The notes: generated by a model from the letters alone, not told the origin. A stretch of 64,000 bases of DNA from an uncultured Solirubrobacteraceae bacterium (GCA_963830345.1 CAWHLZ010000004.1:1362590-1426589); one strand, 5' to 3'. Counted from the first letter of the stretch, positions 42,512 through 64,000 are shown. Numbers and translations are program-made.

Positions 42512-45500
42512 CTACTGCTTCTTGGCGATCTGCTTCTTTGGGGTTTTGGTCGGGTACTTCTTGCGGGCCTGCTTTTCGCAGGCGGCGCGTTTGCGCTTGT
42601 GTTTGTCCTTGCGGCAGGCCTTCAGGGCTTTGGCGAGTAGCTGCGCCTTGGTGGGCTTGATGGTCTTGGAGGGGAGCACTCCGTTGCAGCCGCTGACGGC
42701 GATCTTCGTGGTCTGGTTGATGACCGCGCCGTTCTGACCGGTGACCTCGGTGGGCATCGAGAGGCTCGCTTTGCACAGGCTGAAGTCGTCTTTTTCGGGG
42801 ACGTTGGGGGTCAGCACCGAGTGCGGGCCGGCCGGCAGGTCGGTTTCGAAGATCGTGAACGGCGCGTCGGGGGTCGATTCGAATTTGGAGTAGGTGATGC
42901 CGTTTTTGATGTCGGTCTTGCCGTCCACCACGAGCGTGATCCCTTCGCCCTGGAGCACGAACTCGACGTCGGGGAACGCGGCGGCGCCGTGGGAGACGAG
43001 GTAGGCGGGGCCCGTGAGGGGGCTCTTTAGGACAGGGGTGTGGATCGTCGCGTTGCCGATCACCGAGCCTTCATCACAGGACGCGGGGTTCGCGTTGAAG
43101 ATCTGTTCGGGGCAGGCTTTCTGCAGCGTCGGCAGCCGTGAGGAGAGCGCCTTCGGTAGCTGCAGGTCGACTTTCGCGATACCCGCCTGTGTTACACCCG
43201 TCGCGTCCATGCCGCCCGAGGTGACGGTCACCTTCAGGCTCGTACCGTCGGTTTTGCTGCCTTTGCCCGCGGCGGTGGCGGTCAGCTTGGGGGCAAATGG
43301 CAGGCTCTGGCAGCCCGCGACCTGGAAGCGCGAAGAGACCTGCTCGCTCCCACCCTGAGCGCCCGTGAGAGCGCCCGCGATGCCCATCGGGTTGCAGTTG
43401 GTGGGGTTGAACTCAAAGCCGGGGCGATCGACGGTCACGTTGATCTGTTTGAGCTGCACCGGGACACCCCGCACGAACTGCGGGAACGGGTCGCTGGTGA
43501 TGCTCACCGCCGCGGTCTCGGGGTTGACGTCGATCCGCGAGCGGACGTCCACGTCGCCGAGGTTGAACGGGCCCGCGACCGCGGGGGTGACGACCAGCAG
43601 CCCGAACGGCGCGCCGCTGTAGCCGACCGTCAGGTACACCTCTCCCGGGAGCGTGACCGGTTCGCCGCCGAGACCCGACTGCGCGGTCGATTGGCCGATC
43701 AGGCTTTCCGGGCCACACGCCCATTCCTGTCCTGCCGGGGGTTCGGGGCAGGGCGTGAGCGTGGAGAGCAGCGCCGCGACGCCCGGCGGCAGGCTGATCG
43801 AGACCCCCTGCAGTGGCTGGTCGCCGTCCGGGTTGTTGATCTGCAGCGTGAATGGGGTGAACGCGCCCGCCTGCTCGTTTGTCGAGCCGGCCTGGAAGCT
43901 CGGCGCGAACGCCAGCGGGTCCGGCGGGCACGGCCCACCCCCCGCACCGGTGCTGATCGCGAATGGCGGCTCGGATTCGGGTTCCAACGTGGCGCCCGAC
44001 CAGGCGGTGAACGACGTTCTGGCGCTATAGGTTCCGCACGAGGCAGGGGTGCTCACAGAGCCACGGGGGCCACCAAAGAGCTGCAGATTCAGTTCTTCGA
44101 AGGGGACTTGCGGCGTGTTCTGAAAACTCGTCGTGATCTGGCCGGTTTGTTCGTTGAGCTTCCCTTCGCCAGCGAGCTTGACCCGCAGGCCCAAGACCGA
44201 ACTTTCCGCGACGATATACAGCGCCACAAGCGAGTTGAACGGGTTCTCGCCTGCTTCTGCATTGGGTGCCGGGGTCGCCAGGTAGACGCCGCCCTGCAGT
44301 TCTTCATCCAAGAGCGGGGTCTTGATACGCACGCTGCCGAGCTTGGATGCCCGCGGACACTCGGCTTTTTCGGTTGAAAACCGCAGCGGTTCTGGTGTGC
44401 CAGGCGAGAGCGGATCCGTGCCGCCTGCTCCCAGATACCCGATCTGTGTCTCCGAGCACGCTTGCAGCCCGTTGGCCGCGGAAGGGTTCAACAGCAACCC
44501 TTCGGGCAACGTCACGGTCGTGCTGCGGACGTCCGCGTCGCCCAACGCGCCTTCGGTGAGCGTCCCCTGCTGGGCGACGCGCACGTCGACGTCCAGCCCC
44601 GTGGGGGTGCTCGCGGCATCGACGCGTTCCTCGGGGTGGCCTTCTTCTGCCTGCTGTTCGGGTGCGACTGTGAGCGACGGGGCAAACGGCAGCGCTTGGC
44701 AGCCTGCGAGCGTTTCCAGGGGTTCACCTGTCTGGTTCTGCAGCGTGAACTGGCTTTGCAGCTGGCTACCGGTCCATGAATCGCCTTGCATGCTGGTGTT
44801 CAGCTGGCCGGTGCAGGCGGTCGGGAGCGTCAAAAACGGGATCCCGCTACGGTCTTTGAGCGTTTCGCATGTTTCCCCCGGGTTGCGTTCGATGCCTTCT
44901 CGCAGGCACGCCCAGCCACGTGAGGCGTCATGGCTCTGGCTATCGGGTTGTCCCCAGAACGTGATCTGCGCCGCGAGGATCTGCGCGGCCGCGGTCGTGT
45001 TGCTCGTGCTGACCGTCACACCGTAGTCCCCGCCGGAGCGCACGGCGGTATCGAGGATAACTGGGACGGCGTCTGCGACGAACCCGAAGCTCGCGGGCTC
45101 ACCCTGCGCCGGTTCCAGATTGAACACCGGGACAGCGAGCGTGATATGCCCCGCCCTACTTGGTTCTAGAAGGCTCACGATCGCGACCCCGATCGCTGAG
45201 CCCTCGGGGCAGAGGTTCCCGACGTCGAACGCGGAGAAGTCCGAGGCCGAGCACTCTTCGCTGGCCTGCACGTTCCCCAGTAGGCCCGGTGGGAGGTTGA
45301 AGCTCAGATCCTTGGTTTGTGCGGGGGAGGCCGGCTCGAGCTCGACGGGTTCCCCGGGCTCCTGGACTTCTTCGAGGATCTCGTTGAAATCGACCGTGCT
45401 CGTCAGCTGAAACGGATGCGAACCCGCCTGGCTATCAACCCCACCCCCTTCATCTTCCGGGACGATCCTGTAGCCGTCTTCTTCGATCCCGAACGGCACC

Positions 45501-46111
45501 GGCTGCCCACTGACCCGCACCATCCTCGTCAGCGACTGGCCCGGGACGTTCCCGCCGCCTTCGGCTTCCCCGCCTGTGACGCTCGCCCGATTCGATAGCG
45601 CCGTGACGGTGCCGGTGGGCTCTCCCACGCGGATCGGGATTTCCATTTCCAGGCGTTCAAACGGCGGGATCGCGAGCAACGTACTACAGCTCACTTCCTG
45701 ACCCACCACCGAACATTTCCAGTCCGCTGCTCGTTCCTGCGCGTTGCCCTGCCCGACCCGCGCCCGATGCGGATTCACCGCACTAGCCTCGGTCACGGCG
45801 AGTCCTGCGGGTAGTACATCCTTGATCGTGACTTCGCTGACGGCGCCGGTGATGCCCGTATCGCCCATGTCATCCGCGGCGACATCGATCACGCCTTCCC
45901 CACCGGGCGCTAGGAACGTCGGTGCGGCTCGTGCTGAAAGCCCCCACCACGCACCCGCAAACGCCGGGGCAGCAGACACCAACACACCCACAAGCACACC
46001 CACCAACACCACCAACACCCGCACCCGTGTACGTGGCCGCGGCCGGCGAACCCCCGCCCGCCGGCGCGGACTCGCTCTCTCTTGGATACTCCGCTCGGGG
46101 CGCATGCTCAC
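42512..46111 (-). CDS. A1: about 1199-aa secreted modular protein (signal peptide, DUF11-like N-domain, four Cys-pair modules, basic two-Cys C-terminal tail)
   Basis: Long ORF with a conserved paralogue (A2). The N-terminus RVRVLVVLVGVLVGVLVSAAPAFA|GA looks like a signal peptide. The GTG start overlaps the B1 stop (GTGA), with AGGAGG upstream. ...DVLPAGLAVTEASAVNP...WKCSVVGQEVSCST resembles DUF11/'conserved repeat' domains. Confidence 0.88.
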   Translation of the reverse strand: MSMRPERSIQERASPRRRAGVRRPRPRTRVRVLVVLVGVLVGVLVSAAPAFAGAWWGLSARAAPTFLAPGGEGVIDVAADDMGDTGITGAVSEVTIKDVLPAGLAVTEASAVNPHRARVGQGNAQERAADWKCSVVGQEVSCSTLLAIPPFERLEMEIPIRVGEPTGTVTALSNRASVTGGEAEGGGNVPGQSLTRMVRVSGQPVPFGIEEDGYRIVPEDEGGGVDSQAGSHPFQLTSTVDFNEILEEVQEPGEPVELEPASPAQTKDLSFNLPPGLLGNVQASEECSASDFSAFDVGNLCPEGSAIGVAIVSLLEPSRAGHITLAVPVFNLEPAQGEPASFGFVADAVPVILDTAVRSGGDYGVTVSTSNTTAAAQILAAQITFWGQPDSQSHDASRGWACLREGIERNPGETCETLKDRSGIPFLTLPTACTGQLNTSMQGDSWTGSQLQSQFTLQNQTGEPLETLAGCQALPFAPSLTVAPEQQAEEGHPEERVDAASTPTGLDVDVRVAQQGTLTEGALGDADVRSTTVTLPEGLLLNPSAANGLQACSETQIGYLGAGGTDPLSPGTPEPLRFSTEKAECPRASKLGSVRIKTPLLDEELQGGVYLATPAPNAEAGENPFNSLVALYIVAESSVLGLRVKLAGEGKLNEQTGQITTSFQNTPQVPFEELNLQLFGGPRGSVSTPASCGTYSARTSFTAWSGATLEPESEPPFAISTGAGGGPCPPDPLAFAPSFQAGSTNEQAGAFTPFTLQINNPDGDQPLQGVSISLPPGVAALLSTLTPCPEPPAGQEWACGPESLIGQSTAQSGLGGEPVTLPGEVYLTVGYSGAPFGLLVVTPAVAGPFNLGDVDVRSRIDVNPETAAVSITSDPFPQFVRGVPVQLKQINVTVDRPGFEFNPTNCNPMGIAGALTGAQGGSEQVSSRFQVAGCQSLPFAPKLTATAAGKGSKTDGTSLKVTVTSGGMDATGVTQAGIAKVDLQLPKALSSRLPTLQKACPEQIFNANPASCDEGSVIGNATIHTPVLKSPLTGPAYLVSHGAAAFPDVEFVLQGEGITLVVDGKTDIKNGITYSKFESTPDAPFTIFETDLPAGPHSVLTPNVPEKDDFSLCKASLSMPTEVTGQNGAVINQTTKIAVSGCNGVLPSKTIKPTKAQLLAKALKACRKDKHKRKRAACEKQARKKYPTKTPKKQIAKKQ

Positions 46112-49100
46112 CAGCCCCTCCTCACGCTCGACACCGGGGTGGCCTGGGTCTTTTTGGCTTTAGGTTTGCTTTTGCCCTTCGGCTTGGCGCCATAGCGCTT
46201 CCTCGCGCGTGCTTCACAGACGATTCGCTTGTGCCGGGTTTTGAGTTTTCTGCAGGCCTTTAGCGCGGTTGCGAGCTTCTGCCTGCGGGTCAACGGTTTG
46301 GGTTTGGGTGTCGTGTGGGTTTTGGAGGGCAGCACACCCGTCGCGATGTTCCCGGGCCCGGAGAACGTCGCACTCGCAGCCGCCGACACCAACGACACGC
46401 CTTCACCCGAGGAGGGCCGGCAGCTACCCGTCGCTTCGCATTCCTGCAGCACCGAGCTGTTCGAGGACAGACACGGCGACGCGGTCGTGCAGACCCGTGC
46501 GTCGTAGATGTCGTAGGCGTTGTCGGTGTCCGCGGGCACGAGCTGCGCGGCGGTCAGGAAGAACACGTTATTCCCGTTTTCGCTGGCGTCCAGGAACGCT
46601 GATTCTTTACCCGAGGTGCCAGAGGAGATCAACCCGATACAGCCACTAGAAGAACCACAGCTCCCGACATTTTCGGGCTCGTACTCATACACGTCCTCCT
46701 TGCCGTTCTTATCGGTGGGGACAAGCGCATCCGGGCTGTCGAAGAACAGCCGGCCCGCATTGGAGAGATATCGTGGTTGGTACAACGCGGCCGGTGCACC
46801 ATAGAAAATGTTGAACGTCCATCCCGGGATCGACCCCGCTAGCCACCGGTTACGCCAGATTTCTGGGCGATCCACGAGCAACCCCAGCCCTTCGCCCGCT
46901 AGTTCGGTGTCGAACACCCCTTCGGGGTGTTTGAACCCGCCGTTTTCGCTGACGGGGTTACACGACGCGCATACCAGCCGTCCGGTCTGTGCGTCATACA
47001 AGAACACCTCCTCATCAGGCTCCCCACCGTTGGCGTTGTGGTTGTCATAGCCCGTGAGGCTCTCCTGGGACATGAACGCTAGATACTGGCCGTTAGGGGA
47101 GACGCTGGAGGTCACGGCCGCGATGTTCCCGTTCGAGGGCGGCAGGTTCGACGTCAACCCCGCGCCCCAGTCTGCTGCGTCTTCGTCAGAGAGCGCCGCG
47201 ATGAACCGCGTTTGGCGCACCCCGGGGTCTTGGGGGTCGGGTTCTGAGACATACAGGTTGCACGTCGCACCCGGTGGTGGGAGGGGTGCTTCGGCTTCGG
47301 GGTCACGCACGCATTCCCCCGGCGTAGCGCCCGCCGCGAGGACCCCATTCGCTACGAAATACACCCGCGAGCCGTCCTGCCCCGTGCCGGGGATCAGGTT
47401 TAGGACATCCCCGCTACCGGTGATCGGGTCTGGGGTTAGGTCGCTCAGCCGGCCCCGCAACGCTTCGCCCGCGCCGCTCGTGATTTCAAACTCGTATAGG
47501 TCGGCGGGGGCTTCTTCGCCGACGGGTTCCTGCCCTGATTCTTCGGTTAGCCGGGCGGTGTCGGTGAAGAACACCCTGGAGCCATCGCTGGAGGCGCTCT
47601 GGAAATGCACTTCCTGCTCGCCTTCGCCGGGTTCGGGGAGCACCCCACCGTGTTCGCCGGGTTCGGTTGACCCCTGCCCCTGCGCCGCATTGACCTGCAC
47701 CGTTTCCCCCGTACCGGTGTCCCGCAGATACAGCCGTTCGGGGACCTGATGCACTTCCTCACTCCAAAACACCCGGCTACCATCAACAGAGACCGCGTTG
47801 CGTGCGTTCAGATCCCCACCATCACCAAGCGCCGGCTGGGACTGCGACAGCGTTTCATCCAGTGCTGGCAACCCATCCGGCAGCACACTCACCAGCTGCA
47901 ACGGCTCCCCAGCTTCCCACTCATACAACCCCGCCGCCGAAGGCGCCGTCGCGGTCAAACCGACCTTCGATTCAAAAATCACATGCGACAGATCACTCGT
48001 CGCCCCCAAGAATTCCAGGGCACCGCCGAACCTGGTGCCCGCCGTATCATCCCCCGCCGTCACCAACGGCGTATATCCCGGGGCAGCGGGTGGGTCTTCG
48101 CTACGCACATACAACGTCTTTTCCGTAGCTTCAGGTGATAGCGGTGGGTCTTCTACGACCCCACCAACACCATACGCGGGTTCCGTCGGCGCGAGGAGAC
48201 TCTCCCCGAGTTCGGGAGAAAAATAGTGGTACTCCGAGGGAGCTGGCAGCAGCAGACCCCGCCCCCTGTCGTGTGGTGTTTCAAGACTCGTGGTTTCCCA
48301 GCCGTCTGGGCCGCGTCTGGAGATCAGCTGCGCCAATTCGAAGCTACGGTTCCCCAGCGGTTCGCTGACGACCGGCCCCGAGGCCGCCCACACCAGCCCA
48401 TCGCCACCCGCTGCGGCCTGGATACTCGCGCCCCTGGAGCGCGAGACCGTTTCGACCGCCGCGCCGTGCTTATCCGGCGGGGAAACCATTTCCCACGCAC
48501 GCCCATCCGGCAACACGCCGGCCGAGGGCAACGTCGTGAACGTGTCCACCGATGGCACCCCTTCAACGCTACCCGCCGCGTTGCTCGCCAGCACCCGGTA
48601 GAAATACGCAGTCGCCGGCGCAAGACCCGTCACTTCGACGCTGACGTCCTGGTCGCCGAAGCCCGCCGCGAGCTTCCCCACCCCCACATCCGTACATGAC
48701 GCCGGGTTGAGCGTGCAATCGACGGTGCCGTACTGGAAATAGTATTCCGTTTCCCCACCCCGCGGATCGATCTGCGCACTCAACCGCTCCGAGCTCGCAC
48801 TCACGCCCACCGCCGAGACCCCATCCACGACCGGCGCCGCCACCACCGATTCGGGGATGAACACCTCCACCATATCCGCGTCAAGCTCGGGGACAAACAC
48901 ATCCCCCGTCGCTGAATCCATTGCAACCCCAGCACCACCCGTCAACTGCCCCATACCGAACCGCTGGATCAACACACCCCCCGGCGTGAACGCCGCGACA
49001 CTACCCCCCTCATCCAAATACACCACACCCCGACCCGCCCTCCCCAGCGGCGTGCCTTCCCCACTCGCCTCATCAACCGCGACACCCGTCGTATTTTCGT

Positions 49101-50022
49101 GATCCAACTCGTCTGCCAGGACCCTGGGTTCCGGTGCCGTACCGTTCAGCTTCGCGACCAGCAACGGATCCGGGGTTTCGCCCTCCTGCCCTGGACATTC
49201 TTCGCTAGCACTCTCGTGTTCATAGCCAACATAGAAAGCTTCGTCTTCCGCAGCGACCGCGAACCCCGGCCTCGCCGCACACGAGAATTTCTCTTCGACT
49301 TCCGGGGTGCGACGCAACGCGGGCTCCCACACAAGCCGCACGCCTTCGCTTTTCGTCGACTGTTTACTAAACCCATCAATCACGCCTTCTTCATCCCAAT
49401 ACACCCACAACACCCCAGCCGCGTCCACCGCCACACCCGACACATCTTCAAATTCGAGTTCTTCTTCCTTGACCTTGAACCTTTTCCATTTATGAATCAC
49501 CGCCCCCACAGACGGGCTGTACTCATACACAACATCCCGTTCCCCCGGCCCAGCTTCCTTTTCTTCTGAGCCCACCACGTACACATCACCACGCGACGGA
49601 TCTGACGAGCTCACCGAGTTATCAACCGCGATCGCCCCCGGCGAATGCACACCAAACTCCGACACATATTCAAAACCCCCAGCCCCATCAGGCTTAAAGA
49701 TCTCGACCCGTTCCCCACCAGCATCCACCACATACACAACACCCGTCGCTTCATCAACCGCCACCCCCGAAGCACCCTCAAACTCCCCACCACCAACACC
49801 AACCCCACCAAACACAGACCCAAACACATGCCCCCGCACACCCAACCCCAACGCCGAACCACACCACAACACCAACACCCCCACCAACACACACACCACA
49901 ACACACAACACACGCCAACCACCACACACACGGTTCAAACCCGCGCGAGCCCCCACATGCTCAGAGGCCACCCTAACGCCGACGCTGTTGCTTTCACCCA
50001 TCACACACTCACATCCACTCAC
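46108..50022 (-). CDS. B1: about 1300-aa secreted protein (NHL-like repeats, FN3-like domain, PD40/TolB-like propeller repeats, basic two-Cys C-terminal tail)
   Basis: Long ORF with paralogue B2. The likely start is ATG 50001 (MGESNS). Hydrophobic N-terminal segment WRVLCVVVCVLVGVLVLWCGSALG. GVAVDEATGVVYVVDAGGERVEIF (NHL-like). ETEYYFQYGTVDC...VTGLAPATAYFYRVLASNAAGSVEG (FN3-like). DGSRVFWSEE / DGSRVFFTD / DGSRVYFVANG / NGQYLAFMS (PD40-like). Confidence 0.88.
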   Translation of the reverse strand: MSGCECVMGESNSVGVRVASEHVGARAGLNRVCGGWRVLCVVVCVLVGVLVLWCGSALGLGVRGHVFGSVFGGVGVGGGEFEGASGVAVDEATGVVYVVDAGGERVEIFKPDGAGGFEYVSEFGVHSPGAIAVDNSVSSSDPSRGDVYVVGSEEKEAGPGERDVVYEYSPSVGAVIHKWKRFKVKEEELEFEDVSGVAVDAAGVLWVYWDEEGVIDGFSKQSTKSEGVRLVWEPALRRTPEVEEKFSCAARPGFAVAAEDEAFYVGYEHESASEECPGQEGETPDPLLVAKLNGTAPEPRVLADELDHENTTGVAVDEASGEGTPLGRAGRGVVYLDEGGSVAAFTPGGVLIQRFGMGQLTGGAGVAMDSATGDVFVPELDADMVEVFIPESVVAAPVVDGVSAVGVSASSERLSAQIDPRGGETEYYFQYGTVDCTLNPASCTDVGVGKLAAGFGDQDVSVEVTGLAPATAYFYRVLASNAAGSVEGVPSVDTFTTLPSAGVLPDGRAWEMVSPPDKHGAAVETVSRSRGASIQAAAGGDGLVWAASGPVVSEPLGNRSFELAQLISRRGPDGWETTSLETPHDRGRGLLLPAPSEYHYFSPELGESLLAPTEPAYGVGGVVEDPPLSPEATEKTLYVRSEDPPAAPGYTPLVTAGDDTAGTRFGGALEFLGATSDLSHVIFESKVGLTATAPSAAGLYEWEAGEPLQLVSVLPDGLPALDETLSQSQPALGDGGDLNARNAVSVDGSRVFWSEEVHQVPERLYLRDTGTGETVQVNAAQGQGSTEPGEHGGVLPEPGEGEQEVHFQSASSDGSRVFFTDTARLTEESGQEPVGEEAPADLYEFEITSGAGEALRGRLSDLTPDPITGSGDVLNLIPGTGQDGSRVYFVANGVLAAGATPGECVRDPEAEAPLPPPGATCNLYVSEPDPQDPGVRQTRFIAALSDEDAADWGAGLTSNLPPSNGNIAAVTSSVSPNGQYLAFMSQESLTGYDNHNANGGEPDEEVFLYDAQTGRLVCASCNPVSENGGFKHPEGVFDTELAGEGLGLLVDRPEIWRNRWLAGSIPGWTFNIFYGAPAALYQPRYLSNAGRLFFDSPDALVPTDKNGKEDVYEYEPENVGSCGSSSGCIGLISSGTSGKESAFLDASENGNNVFFLTAAQLVPADTDNAYDIYDARVCTTASPCLSSNSSVLQECEATGSCRPSSGEGVSLVSAAASATFSGPGNIATGVLPSKTHTTPKPKPLTRRQKLATALKACRKLKTRHKRIVCEARARKRYGAKPKGKSKPKAKKTQATPVSSVRRGW

Positions 50023-50099
50023 TCACTAGCTTGCTTACCGCACACATGGTGTGTGGGACCACGCGGGCCCCACACACCACCACACAAACTCCAGCAGGA

Positions 50100-50876
50100 T
50101 CAAACGTACGCGTTCAACTCTAGCTTTTCTTCGCTTTTCACGGTAGAGGTGATGATCTGATCAGCCTGATCAAACCCTTTGCCAGCGAAGTCCGCTTCGA
50201 GGACATCCTTTACTTTTTTCCCGTTTTCTTCATAGTATTCAAGTCCCTGGAAACCATGTTTGCCCTTGTACTTCAGCGTAACCGTTTCGCTCATTTTATC
50301 CACAGGCACATTCACAAGGATCGAACCACGCACCGCCACCGTCAACGAAGCACCACACGTGAATTCAATGAACTTTTCCGCGCCGCCGCTCGGATACAGA
50401 TCCAACGCTGCCTTGTGTTCTTTTTCCTTTTCCCACACAACACGGCCTTCTAGCGGCACTGTTTCCAATTCGCCTTCTTTCAAGCCAACTGTCGTGCAGA
50501 TAAACGGCGTGACTTTGCATCCTTTGAACGTGACGCGCACGTTCGCTACTTCTTTCGTGCCGACATATTCCCCGGTGCTGGTCTCAGTTTCGCAGCCAAC
50601 CTGGTATTTACCGACTTCTTCTAGCACTGCTTTACCACCCGTACTCGTCTGGAATTTCTTCACCACGCCCGGATGCCATTCATATTTACCAGTTTTGGTT
50701 TCGCTTTTCGTCGTGCAACCCGAATTCGTGAATTCACCACTATAAACTTTGCCCACCTTAGGAGCCTTTTCGCACCTGCCATATTCCGGCGCCTGCGCCG
50801 ACGCACTCGCCACTCCGACTACGCCGACCACAAACGCGACGGCGAGGCACACGCCCAAAAATCTCAAACGTTTCAT
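50100..50876 (-). CDS. C1: 258-aa secreted, Lys/Glu/Thr-rich protein with six Cys; family unknown
   Basis: Signal peptide MKRLRFLGVCLAVAFVVGVVGVASASA|QA. Close paralogue C2. G+C is visibly lower than in the core genes. Confidence 0.85.
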   Translation of the reverse strand: MKRLRFLGVCLAVAFVVGVVGVASASAQAPEYGRCEKAPKVGKVYSGEFTNSGCTTKSETKTGKYEWHPGVVKKFQTSTGGKAVLEEVGKYQVGCETETSTGEYVGTKEVANVRVTFKGCKVTPFICTTVGLKEGELETVPLEGRVVWEKEKEHKAALDLYPSGGAEKFIEFTCGASLTVAVRGSILVNVPVDKMSETVTLKYKGKHGFQGLEYYEENGKKVKDVLEADFAGKGFDQADQIITSTVKSEEKLELNAYV

Positions 50877-51083
50877 CTCAACGCTATCCCTTCTACCCTC
50901 GATATAGATTAGCCATCAACCAACTCAACGCAACCAAACGTCGTGATGAGCCACGCGTCGCCAGCCACCAAGCCGGATGTCCTGCGATGACGGGACCCCG
51001 CGCTCAAACTCGAGACACGGGATCCCGCCGCAAACGACCCTAGGAACCTACCCTAGAGCCCAGCTCCAGCATTGAGTTCTAGA

Positions 51084-52001: not shown

Positions 52002-52170
52002 GTCTCCATCACTCCTTTATCTTCTTTAGTAATAATCGATCGACGCCCGAGCTCTCCTCCTAGAGACGCCCCGACATCGCCCGTTTTCAACAGCGCGCCC
52101 CGCCGAGACCAACGGCCTCCGCACGAATGCGCACTCGTCGTCGGTGTGGACACCGACGGACGCTTGTAAG

Positions 52171-52209
52171 TGGCTGACTTGCCCGTCGCCTGGCTGACTT
52201 GCCCGTCGC
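52171..52209. repeat. Perfect 19-bp direct repeat x2 with a 1-nt spacer, in the R1-D1 intergenic region
   Basis: tggctgacttgcccgtcgc at 52171-52189 and again at 52191-52209. Confidence 0.85.
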
Positions 52210-52286
52210 GCGCGGCCCGCTGCCGTACCCGCCAGCAGCGCTGCGCTTCGCCAGCTCTGTACGCCGATCGGCCAGCTTGCAGCTCA

Positions 52287-53357: not shown

Positions 53358-53582
53358 ATGGAGGGAAGCAGAGCGGGCATCATGGACGGCAAGACCCAGA
53401 TCAGGTGGACCCTCGGGTCCTCCCACGACACCCAGCGCTCACGCCCAAGACGCGCAACCACGGGCGCTAGCGAGCAAACCGAGTCCCTCCGCGCCAAGCT
53501 CATCGCCGCGACCGTCGAGGTCCTCGCCCACGGCAGTAACCCCCGTCTAGCCGAGACGGCGCACACACGCATAGCCCCGTAG
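53358..53582 (+). other. Detached 5' coding segment of a TetR-type regulator (HTH helix 1), on the opposite strand from R1
   Basis: ATG preceded by GGGGAAGGGA. It reads MEGSRAGIMDGKTQ...SEQTESLRAKLIAATVEVLAHGSNPRLAE, then runs out of the IR into TAHTRIAP*. Helix 1 is of TetR type (RxKIxxAAxxLxAxxG). Confidence 0.6.
53526..53555. repeat. Right arm of the 30-bp inverted repeat (IRR)
   Basis: gcccacggcagtaacccccgtctagccgag; it encodes AHGSNPRLAE on the plus strand. Confidence 0.85.
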
Positions 53583-56900: not shown

Positions 56901-57558
56901 CAACCCCACCCCCTTCATCTTCCGGGATGATCCTGTAGCCACCTTCTTCAACCCCAAACGGCACCGGCTGCCCACTGACCCGCACCATCCTGGTCAGCGA
57001 CTGACCCGAGACGCTGCCGCCGCCTTCGGCTTCCCCGCCCGTGACACTGGCCTGATCAGACAACACGGTCACGGTGCCCGTGGGCTCTCCCACACGGATC
57101 GGGATTTCCATTTCCAACCGTTCATACGGCGGGATCGCGAGCAACGTACTACAGCTCACTTCCTGCCCCACCACCGAGCATTTCCAGTCCGCTGCTCGTT
57201 CCTGGGCGTTGCCCTGCCCAACCCGCGCCCGGTGCGGGTTCACCGCCCCCGCTTCGGTCACGGTGAGCCCTGCGGGTAGGACGTCCTTGATCGTGACTTC
57301 GCTCACCGCGCCGGTGATGCCCGTATCGCCCATGTCATCCGCGGCGACGTCGATCACGCCTTCCCCACCCGGCGCCAAGAACGTCGGCGCGGCTCGTGCT
57401 GAGAGCCCCCACCACGCACCCGCAAACGCCGACGGCACACACACCAACACACCCACCAGCACACCCACCAACACCACCAGAACCCGCGCTCTGCTAGCCC
57501 CGACCGGCCGGTGTGGTCTCGGACTCTCCTGGATACGCCGCCTGGCGTGCATGCTCAC
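53980..57558 (-). CDS. A2: about 1192-aa paralogue of A1
   Basis: The N-terminal ~480 aa are almost identical to A1, while the C-terminal part is clearly diverged. It has the same signal peptide, and its GTG start overlaps the B2 stop by 4 nt (57555-57558) as in A1/B1. It ends ...RLAKALKACRKDKNKHKRLICEHQAHKKH.... Confidence 0.88.
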   Translation of the reverse strand: MSMHARRRIQESPRPHRPVGASRARVLVVLVGVLVGVLVCVPSAFAGAWWGLSARAAPTFLAPGGEGVIDVAADDMGDTGITGAVSEVTIKDVLPAGLTVTEAGAVNPHRARVGQGNAQERAADWKCSVVGQEVSCSTLLAIPPYERLEMEIPIRVGEPTGTVTVLSDQASVTGGEAEGGGSVSGQSLTRMVRVSGQPVPFGVEEGGYRIIPEDEGGGVDGQAGSHPFQLTSTVDFNEILEEVQEPGEPVELEPAAPALTKDLSFSLPPGLLGNVQATEECSASDFSAFDVGNLCPGGSAVGVAVVSLLEPSRAGHITLAVPVFNLEPAQGEPASFGFVADAVPVILDTAVRSGGDYGVTVSTSNTTAAAQILAAQITFWGQPDSQSHDASRGWACLREGIERNPGETCETLKDRSGIPFLTLPTACTGQLSTSMEGDSWTGDQLQSQFTLENQAGGPLEALEGCGVLPFAPSLTVAPEQPSEQPSEAGHAGERVEEASTPTGLGVVVRVAQQGTLSEGALGDADVRSTTVTLPEGLLLNPSAANGLQACSQAQIGYLGNPGVDPLAPGASEPLRFSTEKAACPEASKLGSVRIKTPLLGEELQGWVYLAAPAPNGEPGANPFNSLVAMYVVAESSRLGVRVKLAGEGRLDEQTGQLTTSFLDTPQVPFEELRLQFFGGPRGALSTPPACGSYTTTSSFTAWTNTTSNPTSEPPFQIATGVGGGPCPPSPLVFAPSFLAGSTSLQAGGFTSFTLTINRPDGQQPLKSLALHLPDGVAAVLAGLTPCPEPPAGGEWACGPESLVGQSTATAGLGGEPVTLPGEAYLTVGYDGAPFGLLVVTPAVAGPFDLGDVDVRSRINVNPATAAVTIESDPFPMFVKGVPAQLKQIDVLVDRPQFTFNPTSCSPMSITGTLTGGQGASIPVSSPFQVTNCQSLPFAPKLTASAVGQGSKANGTNLNIKVTSAGIGQANIAKLAIQIPKALSSRLSTLQKACTERAFNANPASCDAASVIGHAIVHTPVLESPLIGPAYLVSHGGAEFPDLEFVLQGEGITIVVDAKTNIKNGITYSHLESVPDASFTSFETELPAGPDSVFTPNVSEKEDFSLCKTSLQLPVSITAQNGDMLQQTTNVAITGCHIHASTRLTNTQRLAKALKACRKDKNKHKRLICEHQAHKKHPVKKPAHTTTKAKDRQ

Positions 57559-60500
57559 CCGCTCCTCCTCACGCTGGATACCGGGGTGGCCTGGGTCTTC
57601 TTGGCTTTAGGCTTGCTCTTACCCTTCGCCTTGGCTCCATAGCGCCTTCGGGCCTGTCTTTCACAGACAGCGCGCTTGTGCCGGGTTTTGAGTTTCCGGC
57701 AGGCCTTCAGCGCTTTCGCGAGCTTCTGCTTGCGGGTCAACGGTTTCGGTTTGGGTGCCGTGAGGGTTTTGGAGGGCAGCACACCCGTCGCGATGTTCCC
57801 CGGCCCGGAGAACGTCGCGCTCGCCGCCGCCGCCACCAGCGACGACGTGCCTGAAGCAGACCGGCAGCTACCAGTCGTTTCGCATTCCTGCACAGAGGAG
57901 CCGTTCGACGCCAAACACGGAGAGGCTACGGTACAGACCCGCGCGTCATAAATATCGTAGGCGTTGTCGGTGTCTTGAGCGACGAGCTGTGCGGCGGTGA
58001 GGAAGAACACGTCATCCCCGTTTTCGCTGGCATCCAGGAACGCCGATTCCTTACCCGAAGTCCCCGAAGAAATCAACCCAATACAACCACTAGAAAAACC
58101 ACAACTACCCACACCTTCGGGCTCATACTCATACACATCCTCCTTGCCATTCCTATCCGTGGAGACGAGCGCATCGGAGCTGTCGAAGAACAGCCGGCCC
58201 GTGTCTGAGAGGTACCGTGGTTGGTAGAGCGCGGCGGGGGCACCGTAGAAGATGTTGAACGTCCACCCAGGGATCGATGCTGCTAGCCACCGGTTCCGCC
58301 AGACTTCCGGGCGATCCACGAGCAACCCCAGCCCTTCACCCGCTAGTTCGGTATCGAACACCCCTTCCGGGCGTTTGAAACCACCGTTTTCGCTGGCCGG
58401 GTTACACGACGCACATATGAGCCGGCCGGTCTGCGCGTCATACAAAAACACCTCCTCATCAGGCTCCCCACCGGTGGCGTTGTGGTTGTCATAGCCGGTG
58501 AGGCTCTCCTGGGACATGAACGCTAGATACCGACCGTTCGCAGAGACGCTGGAGGTCACAGCCGCAGTGTTCCCTTGCGAGGGCGGCAGGTTCGACGTCA
58601 ACCCTGCACCCCAGTCTGCTGCGTCTTCGTCAGAGAGCGCCGCGACAAACCGCGTCTGACGTACCCCCGGGTCTTGGGGGTCGGGTTCTGAGACATACAG
58701 GCTGCACATCGCACCCGCCGGGGGGAGGGGTGCTTCGGCTTCAGGGTCACGCACGCATTCCCCCGGCGTAGCACCCGCCGCGAGGACCCCATTCGCGACG
58801 AAATACACCCGCGAGCCATCCTCCCCCGTCCCGGGGATCAGGTTCAGGACATCCCCGCTACCCGTGATCGGGTCCGGAGTTAGATCGCTCAGCCGGCCAC
58901 GCAACGGTTCACCCGCACCACTAACGATTTCAAACTCATACAGGTCAGCCGGGGCTTCTTCGCCGACGGGTTCCTGCCCGGAGTCTTCGGCCAGCCGTGC
59001 GGTGTCCGTGAAGAACACCCTGGAGCCATCGCTGGAAGCGCTCTGGAAATGCACTTCCTGCTCGCCTTCGCCGGGTTCCGGGAGCACCCCACCCCCTTCA
59101 CCGGGTTCGGTGGATCCCTGCCCCTGCGCCGCGTTGACCTGCACCGTTTCCCCCGTACCGGTATCCCGCAGGTACAGGCGTTCGGGGACCTGGTGCACTT
59201 CCTCGCTCCAGAACACCCGGCCACCATCACTGGAGATCGCGTCGCGGGTGTTCAGACCACCACCATCCCCCAACACCGGCTGAAACTGCGACTCTGTTTC
59301 ATCCGCTGCCGGCAACCCATCGGGGAGGACACTCACCAGCTGCAACGGCTCCCCTGCTTCCCACTCATACAGCCCCGCCGCCGAAGGCGCCGCCGCCGTC
59401 AGCCCGACCTTTGATTCGAAGATCACATGCGAGAGATCACTCGTTGCCCCCAGGAATTCAAGGGCACCACCGAACTCCGTGCCCGCCGTATCATCCCCCG
59501 TGGTCACCAACGGCAGATAGTCCGGGGCGGCGGGTGGGTCTTCGCTACGCACATACAACGTCTTTTCGCTAGCTTCAGGCGACAGCGGCGGGTCTTCGAC
59601 GACCCCACCAACACCATACGCCGGTTCCGTCGGTGCGACCAGGCTCTCCCCCAGTTCCGGGGAAAAATAGTGGTACTCGGAGGGGGCTGGTAGCAGCAGA
59701 CCCCGTCCTTTGTCGTGGGGTGTTTCAAGACTCGTGGTTTCCCAGCCCTCTGGGCCGCGTCTTGAGATCAGCTGCGCTAGTTCGAAGCTACGGTTCCCCA
59801 ACGGTTCGCTGACGACCGGCCCGGAGGCTGCCCATACCAGCCCATCGCCACCGGCTGCGGCCTGGATACTCGCACCCCTGGAGCGCGAGATCGTTTCGAC
59901 CGCCGCACCGTGCTTATCCGGCGGGGAGACCATTTCCCACGCACGCCCATCCGGCAACACACCAGCCGACGGCAACGTCGTAAACGTATCCACCGACGGG
60001 ACACCTTCAACGCTACCCGCCGCGTTGCTTGCCAGCACCTGGTAGAAATACGCGCTCGCCGGCCGAAGACCCGTGACTTCGACGCTGACGTCCTGGTCAC
60101 CGAAGCCCGCCGCGAGCTTCCCCACCGGCAAATCCGCACACGACGCCGGGCTGACCGTACAATCCACGGTGCCGTACTGGAAATAGTATTCCGTTTCCCC
60201 ACCACGCGGATCGATCTGCGCACTCAACCGCTCCACGCTCGCGCTCACCCCCACCGCCGAGACCCCATCCACGACCGGCGCCGCGACCACGGATTCCGGG
60301 ATGAACACCTCCACCATATCAGCCCCCAACTCCGGGACGAATACATCACCCGTCGCCGAGTCCACCGCTACACCCGCACCATCCGTCAACTGTCCAGCCC
60401 CGAACTGTTGGATCAACGCACCCGACGGCGTGAATGCCGCGACACTACTGCCCTCATCCAGATACACCACACCCCGACCCGCGTTCCCAAGCGGCGTGCC

Positions 60501-61517
60501 TTCCCCACTCGCCTCATCAACGGCGACACCCATTGTGTTGTCGTGATCCAACTCACCTGTCAGCACCCTGGGTTCCGGTGCCGCACCGTTCAGCTTCGCG
60601 ACCAGCAACGGATCCGCGGGTTCGCCCTGTTGTCCTGGGCATTCTTCGTTAGCGCTCTCGTGTTCATAGCCGACATAGAAAGCTTCGTCTTCGGCGGCTA
60701 CCGCGAACCCCGGCCGCGCCGCGCACGTGAATTTCTCTTCGATTTCTGGGGTGCGACGTAGCGCGGGCTCCCATACTAGCCGTACGCCTTCGCTTTTCGT
60801 TGACTGTTTACCGAACGCGTCGATTACGCCTTCTTCATCCCAATACACCCACAACACGCCAGCCGCGTCCACCGCGACACCCGAAACATCTTCAAATTCG
60901 AGTTCTTCTTCCTTGACCTTGAACTTCTTCCATTTATGAATCACCGCCCCCACAGACGGACTGTACTCATACACCACATCCCGTTCATCGGCCGCCGTTT
61001 CCTTTTCTTCCGAACCCACCACATACACATCACCACGCGACGGATCCGAGGAACTCAAAGAGTTATCGACCGCTATCGCCCCCGGCGAACGCACCCCAAA
61101 CTCCGACACATATTCAAAACCCCCAGCCCCATCAGGCCTAAACACCTCGACCCGTTCCCCACCAGTATCTACCACATACACAACACCCGTCGCTTCGTCA
61201 ACCGCTACCCCCGAAGCACCCTCAAACTCCCCACCACCAACACCCACCCCACCAAACGAAGACCCAAACACATGCCCCCGCACACTCAACCCCAACGCCG
61301 AACCACACCACAACACCAACACACCCACCAACACACCCACCACAACCAACAACACACGCCATACACCCGCACAACCCGAGCCCAAACGCGACCCCGCAAG
61401 CCCGAAAGCCACCCTACCGCCAATGCTGACGCCGTTGCTGTCGCCCATCACACACTCACACCCACTCACTTGCTTGCTTACCAGACATGTGGCGTGCAGG
61501 ACCAGCCAGTCCCACAC
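57555..61517 (-). CDS. B2: about 1300-aa paralogue of B1
   Basis: Collinear with B1 and highly similar throughout. The likely start is ATG 61448 (MGDSNG), homologous to the B1 start. Confidence 0.88.
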   Translation of the reverse strand: MWDWLVLHATCLVSKQVSGCECVMGDSNGVSIGGRVAFGLAGSRLGSGCAGVWRVLLVVVGVLVGVLVLWCGSALGLSVRGHVFGSSFGGVGVGGGEFEGASGVAVDEATGVVYVVDTGGERVEVFRPDGAGGFEYVSEFGVRSPGAIAVDNSLSSSDPSRGDVYVVGSEEKETAADERDVVYEYSPSVGAVIHKWKKFKVKEEELEFEDVSGVAVDAAGVLWVYWDEEGVIDAFGKQSTKSEGVRLVWEPALRRTPEIEEKFTCAARPGFAVAAEDEAFYVGYEHESANEECPGQQGEPADPLLVAKLNGAAPEPRVLTGELDHDNTMGVAVDEASGEGTPLGNAGRGVVYLDEGSSVAAFTPSGALIQQFGAGQLTDGAGVAVDSATGDVFVPELGADMVEVFIPESVVAAPVVDGVSAVGVSASVERLSAQIDPRGGETEYYFQYGTVDCTVSPASCADLPVGKLAAGFGDQDVSVEVTGLRPASAYFYQVLASNAAGSVEGVPSVDTFTTLPSAGVLPDGRAWEMVSPPDKHGAAVETISRSRGASIQAAAGGDGLVWAASGPVVSEPLGNRSFELAQLISRRGPEGWETTSLETPHDKGRGLLLPAPSEYHYFSPELGESLVAPTEPAYGVGGVVEDPPLSPEASEKTLYVRSEDPPAAPDYLPLVTTGDDTAGTEFGGALEFLGATSDLSHVIFESKVGLTAAAPSAAGLYEWEAGEPLQLVSVLPDGLPAADETESQFQPVLGDGGGLNTRDAISSDGGRVFWSEEVHQVPERLYLRDTGTGETVQVNAAQGQGSTEPGEGGGVLPEPGEGEQEVHFQSASSDGSRVFFTDTARLAEDSGQEPVGEEAPADLYEFEIVSGAGEPLRGRLSDLTPDPITGSGDVLNLIPGTGEDGSRVYFVANGVLAAGATPGECVRDPEAEAPLPPAGAMCSLYVSEPDPQDPGVRQTRFVAALSDEDAADWGAGLTSNLPPSQGNTAAVTSSVSANGRYLAFMSQESLTGYDNHNATGGEPDEEVFLYDAQTGRLICASCNPASENGGFKRPEGVFDTELAGEGLGLLVDRPEVWRNRWLAASIPGWTFNIFYGAPAALYQPRYLSDTGRLFFDSSDALVSTDRNGKEDVYEYEPEGVGSCGFSSGCIGLISSGTSGKESAFLDASENGDDVFFLTAAQLVAQDTDNAYDIYDARVCTVASPCLASNGSSVQECETTGSCRSASGTSSLVAAAASATFSGPGNIATGVLPSKTLTAPKPKPLTRKQKLAKALKACRKLKTRHKRAVCERQARRRYGAKAKGKSKPKAKKTQATPVSSVRRSG

Positions 61518-61537
61518 GCCACAACAGCTCTCACATA

Positions 61538-62314
61538 CTAAACGTATGCATTCAACTCTAGCTTTTCTTCGCTTTTCACGGTCGAGGTAATAATCTGATC
61601 AGCCTGATCGTAGCCTTTGCCCGCGAAATCCGCTTCGAGGATATCCTTTACTTTTACTCCGCCTTCTTCAAAGTATTCGACCCCCTGGAAGCCGTGTTTG
61701 CCCTTGTACTTCAGCGTAACCGTTTCGCTCATTTTATCCACAGGGACGTTCACCAAGATAGATCCACGCACCGCCACCGTCAACGTGGTCCCACATGTGA
61801 ATTCGATGAACTTTTCCATCCCATCACTCGGATACAGATCCAGCGCCGCCTTGTGTTCTTTTTCCTTTTCCCACACCACACGACCTTCAAGCGGCACGGT
61901 TTCTAGTTCGCCTTCTTTCAAACCGACCGTCGTACAAATAAACGGCACGACTTTGCAGCCCTTGAACCTGACACGTACGTTCGCCACTTCTTTCGTGCCG
62001 ACATATTCGCCGGTGCTGCTCTCAGTTTCACAACCAACCTGGTATTTACCGACTTCTTCCAGAACGGCTTTGCCGCCCGTACTCGTCTGAAACTTTTTCA
62101 CCACGCCCGGATGCCATTCATATTTACCGGTTTTTGTTTCGCTTTTCGTTGTGCAGCCCGAATTCGTAAATTCACCGCTATAAACTTTACCGACCTTCGG
62201 AGCCTTTTCACACCTACCATATTCCGGCGCCTGCGCCGACGCACCCACCGCCCCGATCGCACCAACCACAAATACCACGGCGAGGCATACTCCCAAAAAT
62301 CTCAAACGTTTCAT
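61538..62314 (-). CDS. C2: 258-aa paralogue of C1
   Basis: Same length and signal peptide as C1, with only scattered substitutions. Confidence 0.85.
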   Translation of the reverse strand: MKRLRFLGVCLAVVFVVGAIGAVGASAQAPEYGRCEKAPKVGKVYSGEFTNSGCTTKSETKTGKYEWHPGVVKKFQTSTGGKAVLEEVGKYQVGCETESSTGEYVGTKEVANVRVRFKGCKVVPFICTTVGLKEGELETVPLEGRVVWEKEKEHKAALDLYPSDGMEKFIEFTCGTTLTVAVRGSILVNVPVDKMSETVTLKYKGKHGFQGVEYFEEGGVKVKDILEADFAGKGYDQADQIITSTVKSEEKLELNAYV

Positions 62315-62525
62315 TTCAACGCCTTCCCTTCTCGACCCTCAAATATAGATGAGCTTAGAACCAACGCCACCGACAAATATTTCACTGAACCGATACGCCT
62401 CGCCCGACCCGCCAAGTGCGGCTACGGCAAGCGGGATCCCGCGCTCTCACGAGAGACACGGAATCCCGCCACGAGCTAGTTGCTAATAATCGATCCTAGA
62501 ACCAGCTCTCCGCATCACAGCGAAT

Positions 62526-63440
62526 CTACGATTCACCTTCACCTTTTTCGTACTTTTCCTTTACGAAGCTGGTCAAGCCCGTGAAGAGATTGCCCTGTAG
62601 GATGGTGATCCCATGCTGTTTGGGCAGTTCGAGCACGCTGTTGAACGCAGCATCGAGGTACGCTTCGTCTTCACCGCTACCACACCCGTTCGCACCTTCT
62701 GTAACGGGCCAGCCGAGATCAACCAGCCTGCTTTCTTCGAGCCCTATGGTAAGGAATTCATAGCTCTCTTTGAATATGCCTGCTCGACCTGGAGCTTCCG
62801 TCGTCAGATACTGCCATACCGGGTTTGCGTCAGACCCAATCTCACACGGTCCGCCGCCCAGTCTTTCAAGCACTGGGCTGATCATCCTAACCTTCAGCGG
62901 CAACTTGAACGCAGCACCATGTTCTTCGATGAGATTCTGCGTGCTGAGCGCTTCGGGCGTTTCATAGAGTAGATTTCCGCCCGCCAGTTCAATTTTGACG
63001 TTCAAGCCCGTTTCTTTGTTCTTCTTTGCTTCCTTGAAGGTCTGCTTCAAAGATTCTGGCCATCCCGCCTCTTCCTCGATCCGCGGAGTGATCAGGTTCA
63101 GTCCACCCGGAACCTTCAGTTCAGGAGCTTCAAGCGTCTGATAACCGTTGCCCGCCGGGTAGAGTGTCAAGTCTTCTACACCCTTAAATCCGCCCTGCAG
63201 GATGATCGGCTTGTTGAGCTTCACGTCCACGTTACCCAGCTGGAAAAAGCCACCCTTGCTGCCGCCGGACGTGATTCCGGCATAGCAATAGAAGACTTCC
63301 GGATTGTTAAAAGGACAACCTTTGTACTGACCGAAAGTTGTAGAGTTGTATTTGCTCTTCGCCAGCGCCGGCATCGCGGCCACTGCGCTCACCGCAAACG
63401 CGGCGACCAAGCAGAGGCCCAGTATCCTTACATGTCTCAC
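62526..63440 (-). CDS. D2: 304-aa paralogue of D1
   Basis: Identical signal peptide. The mature part is clearly more diverged from D1 than C2 is from C1. Confidence 0.85.
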   Translation of the reverse strand: MRHVRILGLCLVAAFAVSAVAAMPALAKSKYNSTTFGQYKGCPFNNPEVFYCYAGITSGGSKGGFFQLGNVDVKLNKPIILQGGFKGVEDLTLYPAGNGYQTLEAPELKVPGGLNLITPRIEEEAGWPESLKQTFKEAKKNKETGLNVKIELAGGNLLYETPEALSTQNLIEEHGAAFKLPLKVRMISPVLERLGGGPCEIGSDANPVWQYLTTEAPGRAGIFKESYEFLTIGLEESRLVDLGWPVTEGANGCGSGEDEAYLDAAFNSVLELPKQHGITILQGNLFTGLTSFVKEKYEKGEGES

Positions 63441-63720
63441 GTCTCCATCACTCCTTTATCTTCTTTGGTAATAATCGATCGACGCCCGAACTCTCCTCCA
63501 GGAGACGCTCCGACACCGGTCGTTTGCGACAGCGCGCCCAGCCGGGACCAACGGCCCCCACATCGATGCGCGCTCGTCATCGGCGCGGGCACCAACAGCC
63601 CCCTCACCGACGGACGTTTGTAAGCGGCGAGCTTGCGTGGAGCGCACAGCCCGGCACCAAGACCGGCCTGACCCCCGCGCTGCGCCTGCTCGCCGCGCAA
63701 ATCTCTCAGCCTCCAGCTCA

Positions 63721-64000
63721 TCACGCGGCCTCCCCCGCGCTCGCGCCCGCCGAAGCGCGCGAGCCGACCGCGCTCCCGACGCCGAGCAGCTTGACCACAC
63801 GCCGCCCGCTGGGCGTCAGCAGCCACGCGTTCTCCCGCCGCGAGCCGCTCCCGGGCGCGACCTTCTCGATCAACCCGCGCTGCGCCAGCCGACGCAGCAG
63901 ATGCGAGGTCTGCCCGCTATCGCTCAACCCCGCAGCGTTGGCTATCTCGCGATTGCTCGAACGTGGCGCGCACGCAATCGCGCGCAGCACCAGCGCCGTG
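63721..64000 (-). CDS. R2: C-terminal part of the paralogue of R1 (5' part outside the window)
   Basis: TALVLRAIACAPRSSNREIANAAGLSDSGQTSHLLRRLAQRGLIEKV...ENAWLLTPSGRRVVKLL aligns with the R1 C-terminal wHTH. The reading frame is open to the window edge. Confidence 0.8.
   Translation of the reverse strand, partial: TALVLRAIACAPRSSNREIANAAGLSDSGQTSHLLRRLAQRGLIEKVAPGSGSRRENAWLLTPSGRRVVKLLGVGSAVGSRASAGASAGEAA

Follow-up and report, generated by a model that had tools for sequence, protein, structure and literature searches.

A putative inversion switch in the regulator gene of predicted surface-protein cassettes of uncultured Solirubrobacterales

The stretch of DNA analysed in this study (64,000 nucleotides, referred to below as the window) originates from an uncultured Solirubrobacteraceae bacterium (GCA_963830345.1, CAWHLZ010000004.1:1362590-1426589) and ends with two tandem copies of a five-gene cassette, coding for a regulator (R) and four predicted exported proteins (D, C, B and A). 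We found that the regulator gene of the first copy (R1) is split: its first 51 codons lie on the opposite strand, together with a promoter-like element, within a short segment bounded by inverted repeats. The region 53162-53559 is probably a functional inversion switch of R. Segments of the same structure are present in many related loci, and the reading that we favour, if only with moderate assurance and judging from sequence comparisons, is that the cassettes as a whole constitute a multi-locus phase-variation system for surface structures.

The split regulator gene and its putative invertible segment

A preliminary description of this DNA, made from the sequence alone, had assigned one regulator gene to each cassette. 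R does precede D-C-B-A, but the open reading frame (ORF) recognized as R1 (52287-53162, minus strand) proved to cover no more than the 3' portion of a split gene. The whole R1 body (52287-53196, minus strand) comprises codons ~52-350 and encodes helices 2-3 of a TetR-like helix-turn-helix (HTH), followed by a helical central region and, at the C-terminus, a MarR/IclR-like winged helix. Upstream of the proximal arm of an inverted repeat, at a distance of 8 codons, the minus-strand frame of this gene is interrupted by a stop in the present orientation. The proximal arm (53162-53196) is located within the R1 coding sequence, where it encodes H-G-S-D-P-R-L-A-E, and its minus-strand core is GTGACCCCCGTCT-AGCCG-AGTCGG. 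The distal arm (53525-53559), with the plus-strand core GTAACCCCCGTCT-AGCCG-AGACGG, reads CCGTCT-AGCCG-AGACGG. The two 35-nt arms are 91% complementary and, with their 328-nt interior, form the strongest inverted repeat detected in the region by self-comparison.

The interior (53197-53524, 328 bp) is the putative invertible segment, which stands in what we interpret as the OFF orientation and carries on its plus strand the promoter-like element and R1 codons 1-51. The promoter-like element (53284-53307, plus strand) is TTGACA-N12-TATGTT (consensus CTTGACAAA-N9-10-TATGTTCTC) and is directed at the N-terminal exon of R. This exon (53382-53582, plus strand) starts with MDGKTQ...SLRAKLIAATVEVLAHG, corresponding to TetR helix 1, and continues across the distal arm as far as a stop; the plus-strand ORF between the arms encodes MDGKTQ...SLRAKLIAATVEVLAHGSNPRLAE. 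The predicted OFF-state product of the exon is therefore a peptide of 66 aa, or of 74 aa if translated from an alternative ATG at 53358, and the latter version (53358-53582, plus strand) is represented in public collections as an independent unnamed protein (P0510).

Inversion of 53197-53524 in silico generated a continuous R1 ORF of 350 aa. All 47 of the 47 positions of the Pfam TetR_N model could then be aligned across the junction (15.6 bits), while the truncated R1 gave no TetR_N match, and the loop that connects HTH helix 1 with helices 2-3 contains the junction. For the C-terminal domain, HTH_IclR was matched with 23.2 bits (above the cut-off of 22) and MarR_2 with 25.0 bits (cut-off 27). 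The inverted R1 also aligns with distant R homologues from soil metagenomes, in which the identical N-terminal arrangement, with the same pattern of helix 1 and helices 2-3, is unbroken and not accompanied by an inverted repeat.

R1 is separated from D1 by an intergenic region of 286 bp, and a scan for sigma-70 promoters and terminators was uninformative. A search for k-mers in the R-D intergenic regions revealed a conserved translation-initiation region of D and no obvious operator. This region (AAAAGGAGTAGTGGA..GTGAGACATGTAAGGAT, with a GTG start; ~52002-52030 in the window, minus strand) is conserved at the DNA level in ~40/61 loci though D is the most divergent protein, and it may constitute a regulatory or RNA element. 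The R1-D1 intergenic region also contains, at 52171-52209 (minus strand), a perfect 19-bp tandem direct repeat (two copies of GCGACGGGCAAGTCAGCCA with a 1-nt gap), which is private to the first cassette, being absent from the second and from the remaining part of the window (0.05 expected by chance). Only the 3' end of R2 (63721-64000, minus strand) is present, since the gene is cut by the end of the window; the alignment of the two cassettes reaches 63998, equivalent to 52564 of the first, and the position of the R2 switch lies beyond the window end.

Switches in related loci and a candidate recombinase

Relatives of protein A were sought among the GTDB species representatives, which yielded at least 556 A-encoding stretches, and 77 loci were kept. 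In all, 84 non-redundant switches carry the core in both arms (median arm length 24 nt, range 15-40; median interior 338 bp, range 266-526). As many as 80 of them are split, i.e. OFF, one (in locus L038) is clearly ON and one is ambiguous; in the remaining two the frame is open by chance and the helix-1 motif is in the inverted orientation, which makes them OFF by motif.

The core, GACCCCCGTCT, is common to all switches and almost invariant. The 6 nt that follow it show 2.8/7 matches between loci, as against 97-100% agreement between the two arms of one locus, and this arm-to-arm agreement falls to ~50% immediately outside the repeat. Each arm is quasi-palindromic (CGTCT-N5-AGnCG). It is well known that the core sites of tyrosine recombinases, such as Cre/loxP, FLP/FRT and XerCD/dif, are composed of two inverted binding half-sites flanking a short spacer. 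In the complete 4.08-Mb chromosome OY970210.1 the listed switches all have different spacers.

The content of the segments is conserved as well. The CTTGACAAA-N9-10-TATGTTCTC element is placed upstream of the N-terminal exon in 59/59 segments examined and is strand-specific, with TTGACA occurring 67 times in the forward and 3 times in the reverse direction (~0.03 per segment is the estimated chance expectation). The frame of the exon, its start and the helix-1 motif are kept in almost all loci, and the R proteins have diverged to 40-60% identity. Opposite orientations were found in two paralogous loci of one metagenome-assembled genome (MAG), L038 and L043: the R body (94.4% identity over 630 bp) and the upstream flank are collinear, while the repeat-bounded 413-bp segment between them is reverse-complemented (91.8% identity). 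This indicates, at the level of sequence, that the two loci differ by a recent inversion. Taken together, the covariation of the arms, the L038/L043 inversion, the conserved internal element and the architecture of the sites argue that the repeats are maintained recombination sites rather than relics.

The arms also differ systematically just outside the identical core, where the proximal one usually has GTGACCCCC and the distal one GCGACCCCC. The right half-sites are AGTCG in proximal arms and ATACG, ATGCG or AGACG in distal arms. Such asymmetry could bias the direction of switching.

A candidate for the enzyme responsible was found with the sequences of Hin, XerD and FimB as probes over 2.14 Mb of related-locus sequence; the matches were then confirmed with Pfam. 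A family of tyrosine recombinases of ~410 aa, with Phage_integrase and SAM-like domains and the sequence pattern MATGxIRERNGRFY...HDLRHTAITNAI, is encoded beside cassettes in 8 loci (10 gene copies: two each in L022 and L025, and one each in L028, L040, L050, L074, L094 and L100). Typically, either a gene of this family ends upstream of the distal arm, at a distance of a few tens to ~300 bp, or it is located just downstream of A. Judged by its sequence and position, this integrase family is a candidate for the enzyme that flips the switches, most of which would be served in trans by a recombinase encoded elsewhere in the genome.

In two loci, recombinase copies flank a whole cassette in direct orientation. 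They are identical in L022 (978-2480 and 13502-15004) and near-identical in L025 (1223-2560 and 13743-14999), which suggests the tandem duplication of units composed of recombinase and cassette.

Cassette proteins and their distribution

The two units of the window (42544-52564 and 54021-63998) are both on the minus strand and collinear, with the gene order R, D, C, B, A. Their earlier delimitation was confirmed down to the ORF coordinates, and BLASTN aligned them at 82.3% identity over 10,071 columns, with indels. The first unit encodes A1 (42512-46111, 1199 aa), B1 (46108-50022, 1304 aa), C1 (50100-50876, 258 aa) and D1 (51084-52001, 305 aa), and the second their paralogues A2 (53980-57558, 79% aa identity), B2 (57555-61517, 88.5%), C2 (61538-62314, 92.6%) and D2 (62526-63440, 74%), so that D is the most variable subunit and C the most conserved small one.

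Several other features given in the preliminary description were recovered. In each of the A-D proteins a single hydrophobic N-terminal segment precedes a motif of small residues resembling a signal-peptidase site (A-x-A in A, C and D, A-L-G for B); no further transmembrane (TM)-like segment is present, in agreement with the signal-peptide-like N-termini noted before. B and A overlap by GTGA, with GAGGAGG upstream, in both copies (B2 to A2 included), as expected for the translational coupling proposed. The G+C content is 0.53-0.58 over the C and D genes and ~0.66 elsewhere in the window, as had been remarked. The same holds for the claim that the window contains no gene for an enzyme, sortase, secretion component, transposase or phage protein, in so far as the matches of the cassette proteins in Pfam, NCBIfam, PADLOC and PHROGs included no family of enzymes, sortases, secretion components, transposases, phage proteins or defence systems; with PADLOC and PHROGs nothing significant was obtained for A-D, and only weak HTH matches for R. 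The cassette had also been considered unassignable to any described system, and in agreement with this A, C and D have no family; B carries NHL, FN3 and PD40 domains. The possibility that the four proteins belong to well-characterized, unrelated families without co-occurrence, named in the same description as one that would overturn it, is not what was found: A, C and D are unmatched and the gene order is conserved.

Protein A has a signal-like N-terminus, ~7-8 predicted beta-sandwich domains and, at its C-terminus, a basic helical hairpin (residues 1155-1185) in which 2 Cys are conserved. The AlphaFold model of A1, built on a 64-sequence alignment (pLDDT 80.5, pTM 0.71), is an all-beta chain of sandwiches ending in this helix-turn-helix hairpin. 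No match to A was found in Pfam, NCBIfam, PADLOC or PHROGs, nor in a sequence-profile search of the PDB, and Foldseek returned only generic multi-Ig matches (CD109/A2M, integrin alpha legs, a mastigoneme protein and the BcpA pilin) with TM-scores of at most 0.12; BcpA was aligned over ~250 columns with probability 1.0. The model pictures A as a chain of beta-sandwich domains like those of adhesin and pilin stalks. A's identity as an alpha-2-macroglobulin/CD109/complement thioester protein was rejected, as CGEQ is absent and the TM-scores are 0.06-0.08 despite low E-values, and the generic nature of the multi-Ig matches led us to reject membership among integrins or pilins too.

B consists of an N-terminal NHL beta-propeller, an FN3-like domain, PD40-type propeller repeats and a basic C-terminal hairpin like that of A. 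Its N-terminus matches the NHL domains of Thin and TRIM71 in the PDB (phmmer, E 1.5e-11 to 1e-8); in Pfam and NCBIfam the matches to NHL, FN3 and PD40 are weak, the single-repeat NHL match being below the Pfam threshold. The similarity of the C-terminal tails of A and B, pointed out previously, was corroborated (BLASTP E=9e-11) and extends to related loci. The consensus, LTRAQKLAKALKACRK-x9-13-C-E-xx-ARKRY followed by a K/R-rich end, is present in 89/123 A tails and 88/101 B tails; both tail Cys are invariant in the A alignment, and the last 45 residues contain 37-38% K+R and 4% D+E. To our knowledge, this tail resembles no known sorting signal. From its sequence, the two-Cys hairpin probably serves as an envelope anchor or in the pairing of A with B. 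Assembly of A and B as LPXTG proteins by a sortase was considered and rejected: both lack a C-terminal LPXTG motif and any TM-like segment past residue 90, and no sortase was matched.

C is Lys/Glu-rich with 6 conserved Cys, and D has 4 conserved Cys; both are predicted to be exported. Neither has a family in Pfam, NCBIfam, PADLOC or PHROGs, and PDB sequence-profile searches were empty. The AlphaFold model of D (pLDDT 90.7, pTM 0.84) found no significant neighbour with Foldseek (best E 0.08 in the PDB and 0.39 in BFVD), showing only a weak, non-significant resemblance to lipid- or ligand-binding half-barrels. Profile comparisons of C with D, C with A and D with A gave alignments confined to the signal peptides. 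When each member of the C and D alignments was scanned with Pfam, only stray DUF matches appeared; one of these, DUF7584, was weakly matched by 5/58 C-family members (best E 3.2e-5), the C of the window not being among them.

The cassette is by no means limited to the two copies from which it was first described: two are present in the window, but they belong to a very large family, with ~12 or more members in one genome (OY970210.1). The source contig alone contains at least 5 D paralogues. All 77 of the kept A loci come from Solirubrobacterales or Solirubrobacteraceae MAGs. A word index gave at least 1,921 homologues of A, all unnamed, and an exhaustive profile search 10,281 clusters (50% identity, E<=1e-3), of which 3,981 reached E<=1e-30. 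Some A-family members are giants of 3,400-7,161 aa, in which the A core (profile positions ~478-1119) is repeated in tandem up to 15 times (P0361, P0362, P0374 and others), and in other members (P0441, P0447) B-like NHL and FN3 heads are fused to an A-type body.

The search for C- and D-like genes next to A- and B-like genes, recommended in the preliminary description, was positive. In 79 loci compared with the window proteins by tblastn, we counted 31 complete R-D-C-B-A units, 19 R-C(C)-B-A variants (with C-like genes in place of D), 82 B-A pairs of neighbouring genes and 29 A-to-R junctions, the latter being a sign of tandem arrays. The order obtained from gene calls agrees in two loci, and further cases are present in JGI soil contigs. 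Because the flanking genes vary from locus to locus, the cassette can be regarded as a self-contained unit. Together with the order R-D-C-B-A kept in dozens of unrelated loci, this supports the earlier view of a self-contained module of exported proteins, whose placement at the cell surface is predicted from their sequences.

A different arrangement is seen in a group of JGI soil metagenome contigs (L121-L159), where R homologues of at most 41% identity, with an unbroken N-terminus and no inverted repeat, are located in A / R / B arrays in which C and D were not detected. By their sequence, these arrays look like an older form of the cassette without the switch, which suggests that the switch was derived in one clade.

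The remaining part of the window is occupied by the rpmG-secE-nusG-rplKAJL-rpoBC-rpsLG-EF-G/EF-Tu ribosomal region and by housekeeping genes, with those for SurE and TruA; recombinase, sortase, transposase and phage genes are absent from it. Genes for a MarR regulator and an MFS transporter (24144-26172, minus strand) are inserted between ribosomal-protein operons, and an AIM24-family gene (41096-41995, plus strand) is placed between secE and the first cassette. Scans for tRNA genes and Rfam families in the window were empty.

Proposed mechanism, alternative readings and known systems

In the mechanism that we propose, A-D would be exported via the Sec pathway and assembled into a cell-surface structure, in which A would form a long stalk, B a partner with beta-propeller heads, and C and D small accessory subunits, while the basic hairpin may bind A and B to anionic polymers of the envelope or pair A with B. 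A tyrosine recombinase would exchange strands within the locus-specific spacer at CGTCT-N5-AGnCG. Enzymes of this type need identity of the spacer between the sites, and as the spacer is private to each switch, only the arms of the same switch should recombine. In the ON orientation the promoter-like element and codons 1-51 would precede the R body, giving an intact and transcribed R, whereas in the OFF orientation, proposed for R1 in the window, the gene would be decapitated and deprived of its promoter. Full-length R, or read-through from the promoter of the segment, would then turn on D-C-B-A. Since the cassettes are many and diverged, and nearly all OFF in the consensus, rare flips would give rise to subpopulations displaying different cassette variants. 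Each cell would thus expose one or a few diverged cassettes, i.e. would show phase or antigenic variation of its surface. The preliminary description had supposed that the two copies are expressed alternately under their own regulators; a predicted invertible DNA switch at each regulator supports this idea and offers a concrete mechanism for it.

Several observations weigh against this mechanism. The window contains no recombinase gene, and a recombinase is linked to the switches by its position beside the cassettes in a minority of loci. Both orientations were never seen at one locus, but only in the comparison of the close paralogues L038 and L043, and the predominance of OFF switches (80/84) fits a rare ON state but also very infrequent switching. 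The TetR_N match of the inverted R1 is weak (15.6 bits vs the Pfam cut-off of 24). The spacing of 12 nt between TTGACA and TATGTT is non-canonical for sigma-70, and the promoter scan did not call the element. The dN/dS ratio of the N-terminal exon (0.67) exceeds that of the R body (0.43), although with saturated dS this is not decisive. An exact-sequence look-up in the public protein collection did not reveal the ON form of R1; the truncated R1 reading was absent too. Given that the split gene is present there as the 74-aa call and the ON form is absent, it appears that annotation pipelines systematically mis-call split regulators.

The most serious alternative, which we nevertheless consider unlikely, accepts the switch and reverses its polarity: R would be a repressor of the TetR type, OFF would mean that the cassette is expressed, and each flip to ON would shut down a single cassette. 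In favour of this reading, most members of the TetR family repress transcription, the N-terminal HTH of the reconstructed R is TetR-like, and the intergenic region between R and D could host a separate promoter. Such polarity, however, requires that ~12 cassettes, all encoding two proteins longer than 1,100 aa, be expressed simultaneously, and the promoter-like element points into R-D-C-B-A when ON. Moreover, R also has a second DNA-binding domain, of the MarR/IclR type, so that membership of a family does not reveal how it acts.

Less probable still is that the cassettes are modules for the capture or degradation of substrates, similar to polysaccharide-utilization loci, and not adhesins or variable antigens, in which case their diversity would track substrates. 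The multitude of paralogous cassettes, each with a dedicated regulator, would suit this reading, as would the NHL and PD40 propellers of B (folds that bind ligands or act as enzymes elsewhere) and the variable D with its weak resemblance to ligand-binding half-barrels. Against it, no transporter, hydrolase or other enzyme domain was found in any cassette, and switching by stochastic inversion is characteristic of surface variation, not of regulation in response to substrates (PMC10028968, PMC11892184).

We give little credence to a third alternative, in which a single ancestral inversion broke R, the broken cassette multiplied, and the repeats and exon are decaying with no flipping today. It would account for the excess of OFF switches, the elevated dN/dS of the exon and the lack of an ON-form R1 in public data. 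But it is difficult to reconcile with arms that are 97-100% identical at locus-specific positions while R is at 40-60% identity, which requires continuing interaction of the arms or selection on them, with the conservation of the exon (frame, start and helix-1 motif) and of the promoter-like element, or with the recent inversion that distinguishes L038 from L043. Finally, the idea that the tandem duplication is an assembly artefact, raised as a caution in the preliminary description and favoured only by the general risk of repeats in MAG assemblies, can be dismissed, since the copies have diverged at 18% of their DNA positions and are further distinguished by indels, their D proteins are 74% identical, and diverged tandem arrays recur in many independent assemblies (the 29 A-to-R junctions).

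Returning to the mechanism proposed above, its general class is well known. The capsule loci of Bacteroides fragilis, inverted by the serine recombinase Mpi, and the mpl lipoprotein genes of Mycoplasma penetrans are multi-locus systems of invertible promoters in which most loci are OFF. The cassettes resemble them in having many paralogous loci, each with a short promoter-bearing invertible segment, and a common recognition sequence permitting action in trans. They differ in that the segment also carries ~51 codons of R and splits its HTH, so that the switch, partly intragenic, would act by way of a transcription factor dedicated to the cassette; their hosts belong to a soil order of uncultured actinobacteria, and the genes controlled are unrelated to capsule or lipoprotein genes. 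Unlike in the case of Mpi, the core sites and adjacent genes point to a tyrosine recombinase, and each switch has a private spacer. Tyrosine recombinases invert elements upstream of a regulator operon in Clostridioides difficile (cmrRST, RecV) and of a fimbrial operon in Escherichia coli (fimS, FimB/FimE), producing ON and OFF subpopulations. These elements are purely intergenic and single-copy per system, whereas the cassette switch has one arm inside a coding sequence and, in at least one genome, is present ~12 or more times.

As regards the proteins, A shares with Gram-positive pilins, MSCRAMM proteins and multi-Ig stalks (e.g. BcpA) its modelled tandem beta-sandwiches and many conserved Cys. 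It departs from them in lacking LPXTG, a C-terminal TM anchor and any sequence-family match, in ending with a basic helical hairpin, and in the absence of a sortase gene from the window.

Invertons, including "partial intergenic" ones, form a known class (PMC10028968, PMC9881135, PMC11602134). Gene-altering partial intergenic inversions, with one arm within a gene and the other outside it, change the gene product (Milman et al. 2023, PMC9881135; Chanin et al., PMC10028968). Known inversions of this kind mostly exchange C-terminal or specificity modules (shufflons, hsdS, tail fibres), whereas the cassette switch would attach or detach a single N-terminal exon together with a promoter. TetR and MarR regulators are, in addition, under-represented among the predicted targets of programmed inversions, with ratios of ~0.44-0.55 (PMC9881135). 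In the literature searched we found no paper linking Solirubrobacterales with invertible elements. What is new, then, is the implementation with an N-terminal exon and a promoter, and the proteins of the cassette, and not the class of mechanism. The broadest claim that could be made is that of an order-wide, undescribed phase-variation system in soil Actinomycetota, with a dozen or more spacer-addressed invertons per genome operated by one recombinase without scrambling of the chromosome, each dividing and rejoining the HTH of its own regulator and so switching a new class of multi-protein surface structure (in which the D fold, the A stalk and the hairpin, possibly a new anchoring or pairing module, would be novel). 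In our estimate, this claim is evenly balanced between acceptance and rejection.

Solirubrobacterales, which are abundant in soil and with few exceptions uncultured, have a poorly known cell surface. With ~12 cassettes of ~11.5 kb, the system would occupy an estimated 3% of one 4-Mb genome. The family also brings to light unexplored proteins: the A family with more than 10,000 clusters at 50% identity, the D fold without a structural neighbour, and the C-terminal module of A and B. Current annotation divides the regulators into a "hypothetical" peptide of 66-74 aa and a truncated regulator, a systematic error that can be corrected. The combination of a common half-site with a private spacer suggests a rule by which many invertons may be operated by one recombinase, which is relevant both to recombinase biology and to synthetic recombinase logic. 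As the switches can be scored in existing long-read metagenomes, the existence of programmed heterogeneity in a soil actinobacterium can be put to a direct test.

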